Shown here piece after piece: positions 6,934 through 23,452 of a stretch of DNA of 37,280 nucleotides (position 1 is its first letter; each line of letters begins with the position of its first letter). This DNA is from a virus. The notes below the pieces were generated by a model. It did not search any database, had not been told where the DNA came from, and worked only from the letters and a program-made list of their open reading frames with translations. The translations under genes were made by a program, and so were the position numbers. Location: IMG/VR virus record IMGVR_UViG_3300029228_000011; one strand, written 5' to 3'.

Positions 6934-7065
6934 TCACCTCACCTTCCTTTGTTCTGTTGTTATTTTTGAGTACACAAAAAGACACCCAGCACTGCCAGAT
7001 GTCTTCCTGCGGAAAATGTAGTATTCTTTTTGAGAAAGGATTCTTATATGCCCCCATCAGGGAAA

Positions 7066-7141
7066 TCGGAACAGAAGGACTCGAACCTTCGACAAACACT
7101 GGTTATGAACCAGCTGCTCTCACCGACTGAGCTATGTTCCA
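7066..7141 (-). tRNA. Phage-encoded tRNA with anticodon CAT (Met, or lysidine-modified Ile2)
   Basis: Hand-folded cloverleaf. Acceptor stem TGGAACA/TGTTCCG (U1-G72). D-arm GCTC-AGTCGGTGA-GAGC. Anticodon arm GCTGG-TTCATAA-CCAGT. T-arm GAAGG-TTCGAGT-CCTTC. Discriminator A, no encoded CCA. The variable region is 7 nt (GTTTGTC), which is unusual. Confidence 0.75.
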
Positions 7142-7144
7142 ATG

Positions 7145-18466: not shown

Positions 18467-18495
18467 TTGACCAAAACATTTTTATGTGTTACTAT
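18467..18495 (+). promoter_or_regulatory. Repressor gene promoter with an operator in the spacer
   Basis: TTGACC (18467..18472), a 17-nt spacer, then TACTAT (18490..18495). The palindrome ACATTTTTATGT (18476..18487) lies in the spacer. Confidence 0.6.
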
Positions 18496-18908
18496 TGAAA
18501 TCGCAGGAGGTGATAAAAATAGAAACTTATGAACGAATAAGAGATTTACGAAAAAACAAATTGCATTTATCACAATCCGAATTCGGCAATCGTCTCGGCG
18601 TAAGCAGAAGCGTTATTGCTAATATAGAATTGAATATGCTTGCACGCCCAGATCAAAAAGAACCTTTATATAAGTTGATCTGTAAAGAATTTGGAGTGAA
18701 TTATGAATGGCTTACTTCTGGAAAAGGCGAACCTTATTCCGAAGAATTACCAGAGGATGAATATACAAAAGCTGTTACTGAAATAGGCATTAAGGATTTA
18801 CAAGCTCGACAAGTAATTATTGATTATTGGAAACTTAATGAGTCTGATAAAAAACTTTTCCTATCTTTCATCCAACGCTTTGTGACAATAAAAAAACAGG
18901 AGGACTAA
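18486..18908 (+). CDS. XRE-family (CI-like) repressor
   Basis: ERIRDLRKNKLHLSQSEFGNRLGVSRSVIANIE is an XRE-type HTH. Divergent from the early operon. The true start is probably downstream of 18486: GTG at 18510 or ATA at 18519 behind SD AGGAGG (18505..18510). Confidence 0.85.
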   Translation: MLLLKSQEVIKIETYERIRDLRKNKLHLSQSEFGNRLGVSRSVIANIELNMLARPDQKEPLYKLICKEFGVNYEWLTSGKGEPYSEELPEDEYTKAVTEIGIKDLQARQVIIDYWKLNESDKKLFLSFIQRFVTIKKQED

Positions 18909-18916
18909 TCCTCCTG
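18897..18916. terminator. Bidirectional hairpin shared by two convergent genes
   Basis: CAGGAGGA-ctaa-TCCTCCTG is a perfect 8-bp stem. The A-run 18891..18896 supplies a U-run for minus-strand transcripts. Both stop codons (TAA at 18906..18908 on plus, TAG at 18905..18907 on minus) lie in the loop. Confidence 0.65.
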
Positions 18917-19015
18917 CTGCTCCAATATCGTTTTTACAAATGTGTAAATCATTTTCCATGATTTTTCACTTTTTATTCGTTCCAACATTTGTAAAACTGC
19001 ATTTTTGTACTTCAT
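18905..19015 (-). CDS. 36-aa peptide ORF in its own mini transcription unit
   Basis: Not in the track. MKYKNAVLQMLERIKSEKSWKMIYTFVKTILEQQED*. SD GGGAGG lies 8 nt upstream. It has its own promoter and terminator. Confidence 0.5.
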   Translation of the reverse strand: MKYKNAVLQMLERIKSEKSWKMIYTFVKTILEQQED

Positions 19016-19035
19016 CCTATGTACCTCCCGATTAC

Positions 19036-19116
19036 GTTTTCAAACATTTGTTCGAAATTTTGTTTTCATATTATCACAGAAGTATTTGTGATGCAACTGT
19101 TTTCGAACATTTGTTT
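19036..19116. repeat. Operator-like 18-nt direct repeats flanking that promoter
   Basis: gttttcaaacatttgttc (19036..19053) and gttttcgaacatttgttt (19099..19116) match at 16 of 18 positions. The core AACA-TT-TGTT is palindromic. Further ACATTTGT/ACAAATGT copies lie at 18985 and 18936. Confidence 0.55.
19068..19096 (-). promoter_or_regulatory. Promoter of the 36-aa ORF unit
   Basis: On the minus strand, TTGCAT (19096..19091), a 17-nt spacer, then TAATAT (19073..19068). Confidence 0.6.
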
Positions 19117-19168
19117 TAGTAAAATTTTCCTTTCACTATATAAAACGTATCGGAAGCTAAAAAGTTGT

Positions 19169-19196
19169 GCGTTGTCCGGAATCCCGGACGCTTTTT
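19169..19196 (+). terminator. Hairpin plus T-run (plus-strand sense)
   Basis: gtccgg-aatc-ccggac with flanking gcg/gc pairs, followed by TTTTT. It lies just outside the stop of the minus-strand HTH gene. The transcript it would terminate is unclear. Confidence 0.45.
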
Positions 19197-19201
19197 GAAA
19201 A

Positions 19202-19399
19202 TCACTTATACTCAGACTCATAAAGATCTGAAATAGTGGTTTTCAACCCTGCTGCCAACTGTTCCATAGTTGCCAGAGTTGGACTTACTCGACCGGTCAC
19301 TATGTCACCGATCGTAGACCGGGGAACACCGGTCATAATTGCCGCCTGCCTGATCGACAGGTGGTGCTGTTCCAAGAATTGAGATAATAATATTTTCAT
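19202..19399 (-). CDS. Small XRE-family HTH protein (65 aa)
   Basis: MKILLSQFLEQHHLSIRQAAIMTGVPRSTIGDIVTGR is an HTH. I chose the internal ATG at 19399 because the tracked start (19474) would overlap the divergent gene at 19451. Confidence 0.7.
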   Translation of the reverse strand: MKILLSQFLEQHHLSIRQAAIMTGVPRSTIGDIVTGRVSPTLATMEQLAAGLKTTISDLYESEYK

Positions 19400-19450
19400 G
19401 GTGTTATTATCTCCGGAAAAAGAAAAAGTATTCAAAGGAGAAAAGAGGTT

Positions 19451-20020
19451 ATGGAATTTTACGACGATATGCAAGAACCCTATTGGTTAGACGAAGATTA
19501 TCGTCAAATATCTGAACAATATTTTTCAGGTATGGAAGCAATAGAATCTGACTGGTCTGTCATGTATAACTTGAAAGACTACGAGGGCGAACGTGCTTCA
19601 ATTTTCATACAAAATTGCAAAAATAATATTGAAGCTTTTAAAATCTGGAAGAAAATCAGTGAAAAATATAAACAAGACTCTCCTCCGTGTGTTCCTGCCT
19701 ATAAACGTCTGGCGATGATTTATGAAAAACAGGGGCTTTACGAAAACGCTGCTGCCGTGTGTGTAGAAGCATTAACCATGAATGTAACAGTCGATGACAC
19801 AAAAGCCGGCATGAAAGGACGATTAACACGTATGATAAAGAAAGCTGGACGTCAGCCCTCACAGCAAGAATTCCTGTTGCTGGAACCTGCAAAAATCACA
19901 CTGCCTAAAGAAATCCTTCGTACACGCTGGGGTGATTACGAAATGCCTGACCATTACACTTTGGATATTCGCAAAGGTCCGCGTTACGACTTAAAAAAGA
20001 TAAAGGAGAGCAAGCCATGA
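19451..20020 (+). CDS. Hypothetical protein with a TPR-like helical repeat (189 aa), cassette gene 1
   Basis: SD AAAGGAGAAAAGAGG lies upstream. AYKRLAMIYEKQGLYENAAAVCVEAL looks like a TPR-type repeat. Its stop overlaps the next start (ATGA at 20017..20020). Confidence 0.7.
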   Translation: MEFYDDMQEPYWLDEDYRQISEQYFSGMEAIESDWSVMYNLKDYEGERASIFIQNCKNNIEAFKIWKKISEKYKQDSPPCVPAYKRLAMIYEKQGLYENAAAVCVEALTMNVTVDDTKAGMKGRLTRMIKKAGRQPSQQEFLLLEPAKITLPKEILRTRWGDYEMPDHYTLDIRKGPRYDLKKIKESKP

Positions 20021-20964
20021 AACTGACATCCGGTTTTAATTTTGAAAATTATGAAATTACAGATTATTTAGGATTTTGTTCAGGAGAATACGCTTTAAAT
20101 ACAAAGTTTCTTTCTGACTTTAATCTTTTATCTTCGTACTCTGAAAAACTTGAAGCGGCTCAAAAAAATGCTCTCGACCTTTTAATCAGCAACGCAAAGC
20201 AAATGGGTGCCAATGCAATTATCGGACTCGATATCGATTATACCACTGATGATCATGATATTATGGGCGTAATCGCAAATGGCACTGCTGTAACAATAAA
20301 GAGCACTTTGAAAGAACCTGTCGTTCCTGTAAAAATAAATGTTATCAATTATAACCCTGATTTGGAATTTAGGGTATCCTCCTTGACAATATTGCCAGAC
20401 GCCGAAAAACCTACGATTACTGCAACATTATTCGGAAAATCATCTGAAAATATCACTGGTGTTCTCACCGATATCTTTCTTGTTGATATCTTTAATGAAT
20501 TGCACCCCGTGCATTGCACAGGTTTTTCACGTTTTGATGTTGCACAAAACTTTGCTACTTCCATCAGTACACCTGTTCCTTGCAGTTTGGAACTTAATAT
20601 ACTTCCGTTGATTAAATGTGCAAAGGTAGTTATTAAAAAATATATATCCGACAACACAGTCATAACAGCTTCCGACAATAATAGTCTTCTGGATATCGAG
20701 CAAGAGGATATTCTTGAAAATAGCAATGACAATATTTTTTCTAACTACAAATTACAGTTAGATGAATATATGGATTCTGTATGCCACATGAACTCTGCCA
20801 CTGAAATATTGCATTATACAAAAAACCTTATTGAAGAAAATCATGATTTTATACAGGCTGACTTAATACAATTGATTTCTTCTTGTGCAAGTCTTGAGCG
20901 TATGTATGGAAATTGTAAAAACGATTGCATTGAAAAAATCAAAACTTATTTTGATAGTATCTAA
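20017..20964 (+). CDS. YbjQ/UPF0145-like N-terminal domain protein with an unknown C-terminal region of about 200 aa (315 aa), cassette gene 2
   Basis: GFNFENYEITDYLGFCSGEY...AQKNALDLLISNAKQMGANAIIGLDIDY...GVIANGTAVTIK matches the recalled YbjQ-family pattern. No TM segments and no catalytic motif recognised in the remainder. Confidence 0.7.
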   Translation: MKLTSGFNFENYEITDYLGFCSGEYALNTKFLSDFNLLSSYSEKLEAAQKNALDLLISNAKQMGANAIIGLDIDYTTDDHDIMGVIANGTAVTIKSTLKEPVVPVKINVINYNPDLEFRVSSLTILPDAEKPTITATLFGKSSENITGVLTDIFLVDIFNELHPVHCTGFSRFDVAQNFATSISTPVPCSLELNILPLIKCAKVVIKKYISDNTVITASDNNSLLDIEQEDILENSNDNIFSNYKLQLDEYMDSVCHMNSATEILHYTKNLIEENHDFIQADLIQLISSCASLERMYGNCKNDCIEKIKTYFDSI

Positions 20965-21088
20965 AAACAACCAAACAACAAAAAATCCGCCCCAGTGTTA
21001 CCAGCACCGAAGCGGATCAGTGAATCTATACAGGTCTGGAGACCGGTATGATCCTTCCATAGCAAGAAGATTATACCACAATCCTCCA

Positions 21089-21111
21089 ACACCTGTACAG
21101 GTGTATTTTTT
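21089..21111 (+). terminator. Terminator of the two-gene cassette
   Basis: The perfect palindrome ACACCTGTACAGGTGT (21089..21104) is followed by ATTTTTT. Confidence 0.6.
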
Positions 21112-21142
21112 ATACTCATTTTACGAAAAGGAGGATGATACT

Positions 21143-22372
21143 ATGCCAACAGCAAAAAAATTACCGTCTGGATCCTGGCGTTGCCTTGCATATAGCCATA
21201 CCGAAAAGATATTCGATGAAAAATCCGGAACCTGGAAAAATAAGCGGATCTATGAATCTTTCACTTCTGATGATCCAACAAAGAGGGGAAAGCATGAAGC
21301 AGAATTGGCAGCTAACCAGTTTCTTCTCACTAAACGTAAGGATAAGCAAAGCACTATAAATATTACACTGTCGGAAGCGATCGAGCGTTATATTGAGAAA
21401 TCTGACAGTGCATTATCCGGCACTACGATGCAGGGCTACCGCAAAGATCAATACGATTCCTACAAACCACTTTTTGACACCCGACTGCGTGATATAACAT
21501 CTGATGATCTGCAAGATGCTGTTAATCGCGACTGCAAGCGTCTGTCAAAAAGAAACAAGAAAAACCCGAAGCCTATATCTCCAAAAACGGTAAAAAATAC
21601 CTACGGCTTTATTTCCGCTGCCATCCATTCCTGTATGCCAGACGCATCTTATTGCGTAAAGCTTCCAACTGTGCCCCAAAAGGTGAAAGAATTGATCCCA
21701 CCACAAACAATCCTGGAGATCATAAAGGGAACAGATATTGAACTCCCGTGCTTACTTGCCATGTGGCTGAGTTTTTCCATGAGTGAAATTCGAGGAATCA
21801 AATATAAAGACATTGAAGACGGCTATCTGCGGATTGACCGGGTGGTGGTAGACATTAATGGCGAGGCTTCTGTGAAAGAATCTGGAAAAGCAGCCAAACG
21901 TCTGCGAAAACACCGCATCCCTCCATACATAATGGAATTGATACCAAAAGGTGATCCATACGATTATCTCATCGCTCAAAGCGGTCATGCTATCTATATG
22001 AAGTGGTCAATGCTTCTGAAAAAGAATCATCTCCCGCACATGACATTTCACGATCTGCGACATGAAAACGCATCTATCATGCATATGCTGAACATCCCGG
22101 ATAAATATGCCATGGAACGTGGCGGCTGGAAAACAGACAAGGTTATGAAGCAAATCTATACACACACCTTTTCAGATGGTCGCATCAAAGCAGATGATGC
22201 AATCGACAGATACTTTGAAAATTTACTCGAAAATAATCCTGTAGATATTGACCAGAAGAAATATAAAGCCTGGCTTCTTCTGTACGAAAAAGAGGATTCC
22301 AAACAGAGCAAAGAAGAATTTTTAGCATTTATGCAACACGAAATGCAACACAAAAAGAAAAAAGCCCGATAA
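21143..22372 (+). CDS. int: Tyrosine recombinase (phage integrase)
   Basis: 409 aa, counting from the ATG at 21143 behind SD AAAGGAGGA. The tracked ORF's 5' extension from 20885 is discarded. Motifs: SEIRGIKYKDI (Arg), FHDLRHENAS (HxxR), GGWKTDKVMKQIYTH (catalytic Tyr). Confidence 0.9.
   Translation: MPTAKKLPSGSWRCLAYSHTEKIFDEKSGTWKNKRIYESFTSDDPTKRGKHEAELAANQFLLTKRKDKQSTINITLSEAIERYIEKSDSALSGTTMQGYRKDQYDSYKPLFDTRLRDITSDDLQDAVNRDCKRLSKRNKKNPKPISPKTVKNTYGFISAAIHSCMPDASYCVKLPTVPQKVKELIPPQTILEIIKGTDIELPCLLAMWLSFSMSEIRGIKYKDIEDGYLRIDRVVVDINGEASVKESGKAAKRLRKHRIPPYIMELIPKGDPYDYLIAQSGHAIYMKWSMLLKKNHLPHMTFHDLRHENASIMHMLNIPDKYAMERGGWKTDKVMKQIYTHTFSDGRIKADDAIDRYFENLLENNPVDIDQKKYKAWLLLYEKEDSKQSKEEFLAFMQHEMQHKKKKAR
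22330..22351 (+). repeat. 22-nt direct repeat, copy 1 (possible integrase arm site)
   Basis: tatgcaacacgaaatgcaacac is identical to 22533..22554. It lies in the int 3' end. Confidence 0.8.
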
Positions 22373-22380
22373 AATCGAGC
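22364..22380. terminator. Bidirectional hairpin at the int 3' end, doubling as terminator for the tRNA-like fragment
   Basis: gcccgat-aaa-atcgagc is a 7-bp stem with 1 mismatch. TTTT follows on the plus strand, and TTTTTTCTTTTT follows on the minus strand. Confidence 0.5.
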
Positions 22381-22387
22381 TTTTCAG

Positions 22388-22415
22388 GATGGACCTGAGG
22401 GGAATCGAACCCCGC
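22388..22415 (-). other. attP core candidate: 3' end of a tRNA gene (T-arm plus acceptor strand)
   Basis: The minus strand reads GCGGGGTTCGATTCCCCTCAGGTCCA. This gives T-loop TTCGATT, a GGGG/CCCC stem, acceptor 3' strand CAGGTCC and discriminator A. No matching 5' half of a tRNA lies upstream. Confidence 0.65.
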
Positions 22416-22567: not shown

Positions 22568-23452
22568 TTATACCCTCTCCACTTTCTTCAAATACACCCA
22601 TCCTGCACCGCTTTTCAGCTTGCCGAATCCGTTCTTTTCTTCTACGATCTCGTACTTACCTGACTGCAAAAATGTTCTGGCAGCACTGTATGTTTTGGCC
22701 GGTCCTGTCCTGATTGGAACATTTGTGGTTTTCGGCCGCACCTTGTATGGGAGTTTTGCGGATGTGTACACCTTTTTACCGGCATCGTTGTAGACATGAT
22801 AACCGGCGTGCTGATCTGCACACTGCTTCGCCTTCTTCAGTGTCTGAAACGCTCCGATCTGGCTTTTCTCATTTTTCCAGGTCTTGCGGACACGGTACCA
22901 TGTTTTGCTGGTGGCTGGGAGAATGTCGCCATTCTGTCCAGAAATGGCTTGTTTGAAGGCATCCCATGTATACGTACCTGTATTGTATACATACGGATTC
23001 GGGCAAATTTTTCCGGTTACATCATAGTGGCGAATAACATGATCTGCAGGAATGTTGTATTTCTTCATCAGATATCTGGTCAGCTCAATAGCAGACTGTA
23101 CTGTTGCTCCTTCAAAATACCAGTCCTTATCTGTTGCCCCAAGACTCGCCGCATTCTTCTTTCGCACACACATCTCAATCCCAATGCTATTAGCGTTTCT
23201 GCATTCCGGATGTTTGTAACTGCTCGCCCCACAATGCCAGGCGATATTCCGATCTTCCACGCACTGCCAAATTTCGCCGGCGAAACCGACAAAATAGTGT
23301 GCGGATGCTCCACGATTACCACCGCCGTAATATGAACAGTTTTCCTGTGCTCCGCCCAATGCCCCAACATAATGGATCACAATATATTTGATCCTGGAAA
23401 TATTGCCTGGATTATAATTGTAATTTGAAATCATTCGGTTAATCTTGTTCAT
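22568..23452 (-). CDS. Endolysin: N-acetylmuramoyl-L-alanine amidase (Amidase_2/PGRP type) with a C-terminal SH3-like wall-binding region
   Basis: 294 aa. IKYIVIHYVG...SAHYFVG...NIAWHCG...NSIGIEMC are amidase_2 motifs. The C-terminal repeats have KTWYRV/GWVYL SH3-like signatures. The gene follows the holin. Confidence 0.9.
   Translation of the reverse strand: MNKINRMISNYNYNPGNISRIKYIVIHYVGALGGAQENCSYYGGGNRGASAHYFVGFAGEIWQCVEDRNIAWHCGASSYKHPECRNANSIGIEMCVRKKNAASLGATDKDWYFEGATVQSAIELTRYLMKKYNIPADHVIRHYDVTGKICPNPYVYNTGTYTWDAFKQAISGQNGDILPATSKTWYRVRKTWKNEKSQIGAFQTLKKAKQCADQHAGYHVYNDAGKKVYTSAKLPYKVRPKTTNVPIRTGPAKTYSAARTFLQSGKYEIVEEKNGFGKLKSGAGWVYLKKVERV

Follow-up and report, generated by a model that had tools for sequence, protein, structure and literature searches.

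A stretch of viral DNA of 37,280 nucleotides (nt), IMG/VR record IMGVR_UViG_3300029228_000011 and hereafter the window, comes from a temperate phage of gut bacteria (Lachnospiraceae) and carries a compact group of genes between a phage repressor gene and an integrase gene. An initial annotation of positions 19202-21111, made from the sequence alone, had described this group as a two-gene cassette encoding a tetratricopeptide repeat (TPR) protein and a protein with a YbjQ domain, with a small helix-turn-helix (HTH) gene alongside. With moderate confidence, we read the locus as a mobile, self-regulated phage cargo cassette whose core is the HTH gene, HTH65, together with the divergent gene 2, encoding a long YbjQ-domain protein (YbjQ-long) that would act as a non-enzymatic binder, and in which the TPR gene, gene 1, would be a passenger. 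The architectural part of this reading is well supported; the biological role is not. In the sources searched, no description was found of the cassette, its regulator, or its mosaic history, and labels for the protein family already exist. The features of the cassette are as follows.

19202..19399, minus strand: HTH65, an XRE-family regulator of 65 residues (HTH_3, E 6.7e-10)
19381..19413: candidate operator, the inverted repeat GAGATAATAA-N13-TTATTATCTC, with perfect 10-nt arms and a 13-nt spacer
19451..20020, plus strand: gene 1, 189 residues, one TPR motif (TPR_1 below threshold; family profile against TPR structures, E 1.8e-11)
20017..20964, plus strand: gene 2, YbjQ-long, 315 residues (YbjQ_1, E 1.2e-15; AlphaFold models)

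The open reading frame (ORF) list and the sequence agree on the coordinates of gene 1 and gene 2, and the ATGA at 20017-20020 is common to the end of the former and the start of the latter. The sizes, strand, and overlap of the two genes given by the initial annotation were thus correct.

Examination of related loci (designated L, with individual proteins designated P) revealed homologues of HTH65 placed divergently beside gene 2 relatives, at 98% identity in L097, 60% in L018, and 46% in L005. P0010, a gene 2 protein 90% identical to that of the window, is separated by 50 nt from a divergent gene for a 65-residue HTH protein 98% identical to HTH65, with no gene 1 and with a different integrase of 408 residues. 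L018, from Hominisplanchenecus faecis, combines a 56%-identical gene 2 and its divergent HTH gene with a serine recombinase, and L005 combines a 36%-identical gene 2 and a divergent HTH gene missed by the gene caller with an integrase of 354 residues; gene 1 is found in neither. The divergence of HTH65 tracks that of gene 2 across these lineages, and both genes are under purifying selection, with ratios of nonsynonymous to synonymous polymorphism (pN/pS) of 0.15 and 0.19, respectively.

Viral contigs in which gene 2 is at least 91% identical to that of the window present three layouts: HTH65-gene 2, HTH65-gene 1-gene 2, and HTH65-lipoprotein-gene 2. Each was seen with various cI and int genes, and the layout of the window is intact in several phage backgrounds (L105, L106, and L111-L113). 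The contexts of gene 1 and gene 2 relatives indicate that the conserved unit is HTH65 plus gene 2, with gene 1 an optional filler. The initial annotation had taken the TPR and YbjQ genes as one unit and the HTH gene as merely adjacent; gene 2 at 90-100% identity is often without gene 1, and HTH65 is its conserved partner at 36-100% identity. That annotation had also named, as an outcome that would count against it, a pair not conserved as a unit elsewhere, and this is what the loci of the relatives hold. The gene that replaces gene 1 in the third layout (L116 2697-3980, also L104, L110, L114, L115, and L117) encodes a predicted lipoprotein of 427 residues having an N-terminal signal-peptide-like segment that ends ...LVGC. 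The ribosome-binding sequence right before gene 2 in this layout (AAAGGAGAGCAAGCC) is identical to that in the window.

Gene 1 itself bears a single repeat. The TPR_1 model matched residues 82-111 with 23.8 bits, below the Pfam cut-off of 27.8, but the profile of the gene 1 family matched consensus TPR structures with E 1.8e-11 over about 40 profile positions, the length of one motif. Because of this match by the family profile, we consider one TPR motif in gene 1 to be real, and the TPR-like repeat initially noticed there stands in that form. Eighteen relatives of gene 1 were detected, and its core is 41-60% identical to members of a small family that begin MGF... and end ...LLD. Relatives of gene 1 occur without gene 2 next to other recombinases, and in L010 one stands alone before an integrase gene. 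No PADLOC-DB v2 model matched gene 1.

How gene 1 came to its position is suggested by comparison with the compact layout. Window positions 19013-19456 align to L097 4559-5006 at 92% identity, and homology resumes at 19993. Within the first of these segments are HTH65, the intergenic region, and the opening 6 nt of gene 1 (ATG plus two bases), whose counterpart in L097 is the start of gene 2. This alignment indicates that gene 1 uses the start site that serves gene 2 in the compact layout. The other end of gene 1 contains a further segment of separate relationship.

19907..20008, plus strand: C-terminal tail segment of gene 1, residues 153-186 (93% nucleotide identity to L013 6415-6516)

The flanks of this match are unrelated on both sides. 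The tail, of about 35 residues, is found in the alignment only in close variants of the window's protein (P0122) and in P0136-P0138, sister-phage proteins otherwise unrelated to gene 1; in L013, the tail-bearing gene overlaps an unrelated gene of 273 codons by 4 nt. The segment 19907-20008 marks a recombination junction. The synonymous polymorphism (pS) of gene 1 is 0.022, about eightfold lower than the 0.17-0.19 of HTH65 and gene 2, and its pN/pS is 0.18, so that gene 1 is recent but is under purifying selection and is not decaying. Gene 1 is a young chimera of three parts, a passenger placed between the cassette promoter and gene 2.

The regulator at the other side of the cassette was assigned to the XRE / Cro-C1 family (PF01381) by an HTH_3 score of 39.3 bits against a cut-off of 23. 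Its ORF was listed as 19202..19474, 90 residues from a TTG codon, and the ATG at 19399 gives the product of 65 residues. From this start to the ATG of gene 1 there are 51 nt (19400-19450), and good Shine-Dalgarno sequences for both genes lie inside the gap; the initial annotation had described both the divergent XRE gene and the 51-nt interval accurately. When searched with PADLOC, HTH65 gave weak matches to the HTH_VI, capH, and Control_protein models (E 4e-4 to 2e-2).

The inverted repeat at 19381-19413 spans the start codon of HTH65, and its geometry is the same in L097, with 9-nt arms, and in L018, with 7-nt arms and the innermost pair altered on both arms. It overlaps a promoter-like site on the minus strand (19435..19406) and also, as judged by eye, a TGnTATTAT on the plus strand (19402-19410). 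The repeat fits an autoregulated divergent promoter pair to which HTH65 would bind, and HTH65 is presumed to be the repressor of the cassette promoters.

The YbjQ_1 model matched residues 1-94 of gene 2 (model positions 1-103) with E 1.2e-15 and 58.5 bits against a cut-off of 23. A family profile matched 2GTC, 1Y2I, and 1VR4 with E 3e-26 to 4e-25. Two AlphaFold models were obtained for gene 2, with predicted local distance difference test scores (pLDDT) of 86 and 89.7, and a Foldseek search with the model retrieved 1y2i_A (E 3e-9, target template modeling (TM) score 0.80) and 1vr4_B (target TM-score 0.94). The whole model matched solved YbjQ structures only, plus RcsF weakly. According to the models and an alignment of 59 sequences, residues 1-96 form the YbjQ domain, residues from about 100 to 220 a beta-sandwich, and residues 229-243 a disordered linker, after which come four helices. 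The helices carry an ERxYGNxK motif in which E294 and G298 are invariant and Y297, N299, and K301 are at least 90% conserved.

Beyond the YbjQ domain, there is no Pfam family for the C-terminal 220 residues or so, in keeping with the initial annotation, which had recognized the N-terminal YbjQ domain and had seen no motif in the rest. When residues 97-315 were re-predicted alone, a fold search of the PDB yielded nothing better than E 0.05; the generic Ig-like and MATH-like sandwich matches, at E 0.05 or worse, were set aside as uninformative. A profile search against PDB sequences returned YbjQ entries only. The fold search that the initial annotation had proposed for gene 2 thus recovered the YbjQ domain, and for residues 97-315 gave nothing new. 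No catalytic family, fold, or signature was detected in gene 2. With 315 residues and two extra domains, gene 2 exceeds the length of a canonical single-domain YbjQ protein (about 100-110 residues); it is a multi-domain protein containing a YbjQ domain, not a canonical YbjQ. Judged from the models, its fold is three-domain and non-enzymatic-looking.

Searches with gene 2 gave 153 matches, mostly full-length proteins of 310-380 residues, and a subgroup of 360-380 residues carries a zinc-ribbon insert. A profile of the C-terminal module identified 360 cluster representatives among 1.84 billion proteins, almost always with the module behind an N-terminal domain of about 100 residues. Other arrangements occur in P0160, P0265, P0167, P0181, P0204, and P0214: in a few proteins YbjQ is replaced by an N-terminal zinc ribbon followed by a membrane-like region or by DUF4177, and the module may also bear an additional zinc ribbon at its C terminus. 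Purifying selection acts on all parts of gene 2, and the YbjQ domain of the window (20017-20304) is without 9 residues of the most conserved loop of its own family (consensus GTGFLSSLGAGxADFxGxNS; gene 2 residues 24-80). P0013 and P0014 are natural recombinants in which a full-loop YbjQ domain of the P0021 type (56% identical) is joined to a C-terminal part nearly identical to that of the window, which indicates that alleles are swapped within gene 2 at the level of domains.

Against PADLOC-DB v2, the sole match to gene 2 was PtuB over residues 212-285 (E 0.003), which is spurious. The initial annotation had been unable to match the cassette to a named defense system, and the PADLOC-DB v2 search likewise gave no usable match for either protein. 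Existing database labels for the family are "YbjQ family" and "heavy-metal-binding protein", including on a metagenomic phage. In the literature on YbjQ, UPF0145, DUF74, and PF01906, we found no functional study and no link to phages.

The genes and the element that border the cassette are the following.

18486..18908, plus strand: cI-like phage repressor, 140 residues (HTH_19, E 2.3e-8; HTH_3, E 7.2e-8; phrog_8 transcriptional regulator, E 3e-15)
20973..21142, strand considered below: conserved element of about 170 nt upstream of the recombinase gene (identity across sister and other phages, fold, and covariation)
21143..22372, plus strand: tyrosine integrase, 409 residues (Phage_integrase, E 2.3e-8; phrog_1 integrase, E 6.7e-35)

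The cI-like gene is the left border of a cargo slot, as context outside the cassette, and the integrase gene is its right border. Sister prophages L013-L017 are 96.7% identical to the window over 20973-22413, that is, over the intergenic element and the integrase gene; the sister integrase protein is 98.5% identical to that of the window, and the early genes are 87% identical. In place of the cassette, the repressor-integrase interval of these prophages holds an ImmA-like gene, a TPR-like gene of 319 codons, and the gene of 273 codons. Sister phages with the same integrase and other cargo identify the slot as a site of cargo exchange, and the initial proposal that the segment is accessory cargo of a temperate phage, lodged between repressor and integrase, is borne out by the unrelated genes found there. 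The 273-codon gene was considered as a diverged relative of gene 2 and rejected (best E 1.4).

Other contents of the slot among relatives include a PD-Lambda-1 homologue, the lipoprotein gene, and a HicB-like gene. As is typical of phage morons or accessory cargo, the presence of the cassette varies between close phages and its base composition is atypical: the G+C fraction is 0.34-0.39 over 18-21 kb versus 0.46-0.57 in the rest of the window, so that the AT-richness first remarked on by eye holds. In L012 (1047-3206), the PD-Lambda-1 homologue, which has a T5orf172/MUG113 domain (PADLOC E 1.7e-80), is directly preceded by a gene 1 relative, P0126, whose core is 60% identical; the two are flanked by a repressor gene on one side and a serine recombinase gene on the other, without gene 2.

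The sister prophages L013-L017 are integrated beside smpB. Homology to them ends at about 22413, just beyond the stop codon of the integrase gene (L013 8757-9715), so that the attachment site falls in the interval separating int from the minus-strand endolysin gene (22568..23452); the window has the appearance of a phage genome that is excised or circularly permuted. When the region, gene 1, and gene 2 were compared with the GenBank phage collection at both the nucleotide and the protein level, nothing matched. Between the convergent cI-like gene and HTH65 is a non-coding AT-rich stretch of 293 nt (18909-19201), mostly 92% conserved with L097 from 19013 on, with terminator-like hairpins in the region at 18895-18918 (minus strand) and 19173-19190 (plus strand). 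The phage also encodes a tRNA-Met (anticodon CAT) at 7065-7142 on the minus strand.

The element at 20973-21142 recurs at L013 7361-7530, L097 5956-6131, L018 7908-8100, and L005 6972-7131, and immediately precedes four different recombinase genes. It is 96.7% identical in L013, which lacks gene 2, and 70-77% identical in L005 and L018 before different recombinases; in L018, two other genes lie between it and gene 2. A pattern scan located the element in 54 viral (IMG/VR) contigs, L132-L184. The element belongs to the integrase, not to the cassette. It includes the palindrome ACACCTGTACAGGTGT (21089-21104) with its T-run, scored on the plus strand as terminator-like with 6 pairs, 3 of them G-C. 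The initial annotation had given the cassette a palindromic terminator of its own; the palindrome and T-run are present, but they form part of this recombinase-linked element and are also found in phages without gene 2.

The minus strand of the element carries a hexamer resembling a -35 site and an extended -10 (21099..21070); in the latter, the TG, TA, and AT positions are constant across all 39 unique variants, and the free position is not. The promoter-like sequence is followed by a variable 5' hairpin and then by a terminator hairpin of 11-14 base pairs with a U-run (21018..20984 in the window). The U.G and G.U pairs of the terminator hairpin are mismatches on the plus strand; three of its pairs are G.U in some variants and G-C in others, and one shows covariation, with G-C exchanged for A-U. 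The fold of the element has a z-score of -2.9. The best reading is that the element is a candidate new small RNA of the minus strand, 72-119 nt in length and about 90 nt in the window, as predicted from its sequence and conservation. A leader or attenuator on the plus strand, which may be suggested by complementarity flanking the -10 region, is the less good reading since the left hairpin is specific to the minus strand. A search of the whole window against Rfam at gathering thresholds found no family in the region, and relaxed thresholds, applied to 18800-21300, brought up only a chance-level archaeal small RNA (E 0.35). Integrase expression in Lachnospiraceae phages may be under the control of this RNA-like element, which would then be a new regulator.

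Nearly all genome matches of gene 2 are to Lachnospiraceae or related gut Clostridia, and the YbjQ-long family, in which gene 2 has its origin, is mostly chromosomal. A rough neighbor-joining tree places every phage-borne copy within the short-form clade, where such copies form at least three distinct lineages interspersed with chromosomal ones. Of the nine short-form chromosomal loci checked, two abut complete defense systems, and the rest are in housekeeping contexts. In L019 (231-5899), the gene 2 relative adjoins Wadjet (JetA, E 6e-186; JetC, E 0), and in L025 (702-5947) it comes directly after a BREX operon (PglZ, E 6e-273; BrxL, E 0). Matches to GajB, AriA, and mad among chromosomal neighbors were discarded as generic similarity of UvrD helicases and ABC ATPases.

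The following sequence of events and interactions would account for the cassette. Gene 1, as a chimeric passenger, would have landed between the cassette promoter and gene 2, so as to be translated now from the former gene 2 start, with gene 2 translationally coupled behind it. HTH65 would bind the inverted repeat over the overlapping divergent promoters and hold the operon low under autoregulation. YbjQ-long would assemble into a ring through its YbjQ domain, as solved single-domain YbjQ proteins do; these relatives are listed with five chains per entry. Such a ring could display the beta-sandwich and helical arms, which would bind or sequester a partner without catalysis. By analogy with its solved relatives, gene 2 is probably ring-forming and acts by binding. 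The benefit of the cassette most likely goes to the lysogen. As to what that benefit is, we lean slightly and tentatively toward a role in conflict between phages or with mobile elements, toward which the exchange of slot contents between sister phages, the place of all phage-borne copies in the short-form clade, and the adjacency to Wadjet and BREX are suggestive but circumstantial pointers; an adjustment of host physiology through a phage-borne copy of a host protein ranks after it, as a possible but somewhat doubtful role.

Several observations weigh against this account. Some phage-borne copies of gene 2 have no HTH65 (L023, L026, and L120-L125). In L023 and L026, the copy directly follows the main repressor of the phage, and in L120-L125 (e.g., L123 3352-4966) a 33%-identical relative heads the rightward early operon, a lytic-side position unlike that in the window. 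Most chromosomal relatives, especially those of the zinc-ribbon subgroup, lie among housekeeping genes with no HTH partner; their neighbors include thymidylate synthase and DHFR, a UvrD-family helicase and DegV, PPDK, Dxr and RseP, and PFK, contexts that suit a cellular role better than a dedicated defense role. The count of loci beside defense systems, two of nine, is small, neither protein matches a PADLOC model once the spurious PtuB match is set aside, and ring assembly and operator binding are extrapolations. In L120-L125, the gene that the gene 2 relative faces encodes an HTH protein of 178 residues, and an AbrB/SpoVT-like gene and replication genes come after the relative.

A bolder form of the cassette reading holds that HTH65 and YbjQ-long constitute a new single-effector conflict system, for anti-phage defense or superinfection exclusion, in which a ring-forming effector sequesters its target; it would be spreading in Lachnospiraceae phages and settling at the edges of Wadjet and BREX islands, its promoter borrowed by upstream passengers such as the TPR protein and the lipoprotein. 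We regard this as unlikely, though of consequence if true, since it would then provide a first biological role for the YbjQ/UPF0145 domain. About as doubtful is that gene 2 is simply an auxiliary gene of host type, a phage copy of a Lachnospiraceae cytoplasmic protein that tunes lysogen physiology (for example, metal, ion, or stress responses) with no part in conflict. The mostly chromosomal distribution of the family in ordinary contexts, the source labels, and the purifying selection on every part of gene 2 are in keeping with such a gene. However, the metal-binding label is a structural-genomics inference only, with no functional paper found behind it; the loss of 9 residues from the most conserved loop argues against simple duplication of a host function; and the dedicated repressor, the high mobility, and the defense-island neighbors point elsewhere.

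The placement of a small repressor gene back to back with an operon whose last product is a 315-residue protein, within the lysogeny region, also recalls a secondary immunity or antirepressor module such as P22 immI, in which HTH65 would restrain an inactivator of about 300 residues directed at the main repressor, or an inducer. The head of an early operon is the usual site of Cro or antirepressor genes, and the relative in L120-L125 occupies it, facing an HTH protein, while that in L023 and L026 lies directly beside the main repressor. Nonetheless, no likeness to Ant, KilAC, or Bro-N and no functional Pfam or PHROG match beyond YbjQ was found, many relatives are chromosomal, solo, and far from prophages, and the same cassette occurs in phages with three different main repressors, which is awkward for a protein needing to recognize a specific repressor. 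We therefore judge such a module to be quite unlikely. Still less probable is the obligate pairing of gene 1 and gene 2 as an anti-phage defense or superinfection-exclusion system, in which the TPR protein would serve as sensor or adaptor and YbjQ as effector. Translational coupling by the ATGA overlap, the recurrence of the gene order in L105, L106, and L111-L113, the pN/pS of 0.18 for gene 1, the like coupling of a sister-phage TPR-like protein with the same tail to its downstream gene, and the PD-Lambda-1 homologue adjoining a gene 1 relative all speak for it. These are outweighed by gene 2 at 90-100% identity standing without gene 1 or with the lipoprotein gene instead, by distant gene 2 relatives that are never near gene 1, and by gene 1 relatives without gene 2, the youth and chimeric make-up of gene 1, and the lack of PADLOC matches. 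We give the least credence to a toxin-antitoxin or abortive-infection pair in which HTH65 would be the antitoxin or regulator and YbjQ-long the toxic effector: HTH65 has weak matches to HigA-type antitoxin and control-protein models and is tightly linked to gene 2 in three lineages, but the two genes are divergent instead of forming one operon, chromosomal relatives do without the HTH partner, as would be unlikely for a toxin, and no toxin-like domain or fold was found in gene 2.

YbjQ/UPF0145 proteins are widespread, and structures have been solved since 2005; a mobile phage version under the control of a repressor offers a tractable handle on their function, in the form of a two-gene construct for which natural variants with and without passenger genes exist. 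The locus is also a clean example of gut-phage cargo slots rebuilt by recombination at short shared junctions, and it shows how poorly translational coupling by itself predicts functional partnership. Should the cassette prove to be plain cargo with a function of cellular type, the finding would be an ordinary one.

Among known systems, the YbjQ/UPF0145 family (PF01906; 1Y2I, 1VR4, 2GTC, 3QKB) resembles gene 2 in residues 1-96, by both sequence and fold. A canonical YbjQ protein is a single domain of about 105 residues, whereas gene 2 adds a beta-sandwich and a helical domain without known relatives, and the allele in the window falls short by 9 residues in the most conserved loop of the family. 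The immI region of P22 (mnt / arc-ant) is a secondary immunity region with the small repressor Mnt; like the cassette, it lies in a temperate phage and pairs a small repressor gene with a divergent operon whose last product has about 300 residues. It differs in that gene 2 is unlike Ant, KilAC, and Bro-N in sequence and fold and has solo chromosomal relatives, and in that HTH65 is of the XRE type, not ribbon-helix-helix. C-protein and CapH regulators, small HTH proteins whose genes lie upstream of, and divergent from, defense or restriction systems, are similar to HTH65 as a 65-residue XRE HTH protein encoded divergently from the genes it would control, with an inverted repeat at the promoter. 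The similarity in sequence is generic, at the level of the HTH, and unlike those systems the cassette has no CapP-like protease and no restriction-modification genes, and the gene regulated is not a known defense effector. Phage morons and other lysogenic-conversion cargo are known in the repressor-integrase region of temperate phages. A constitutive promoter and a terminator are more typical of morons, whereas the cargo of the window has its own divergent repressor and a candidate operator, and the terminator near it belongs to the integrase-proximal element. The cassette is nonetheless like a moron in being AT-rich, present or absent between near-identical phages, and oriented with the lysogeny genes.

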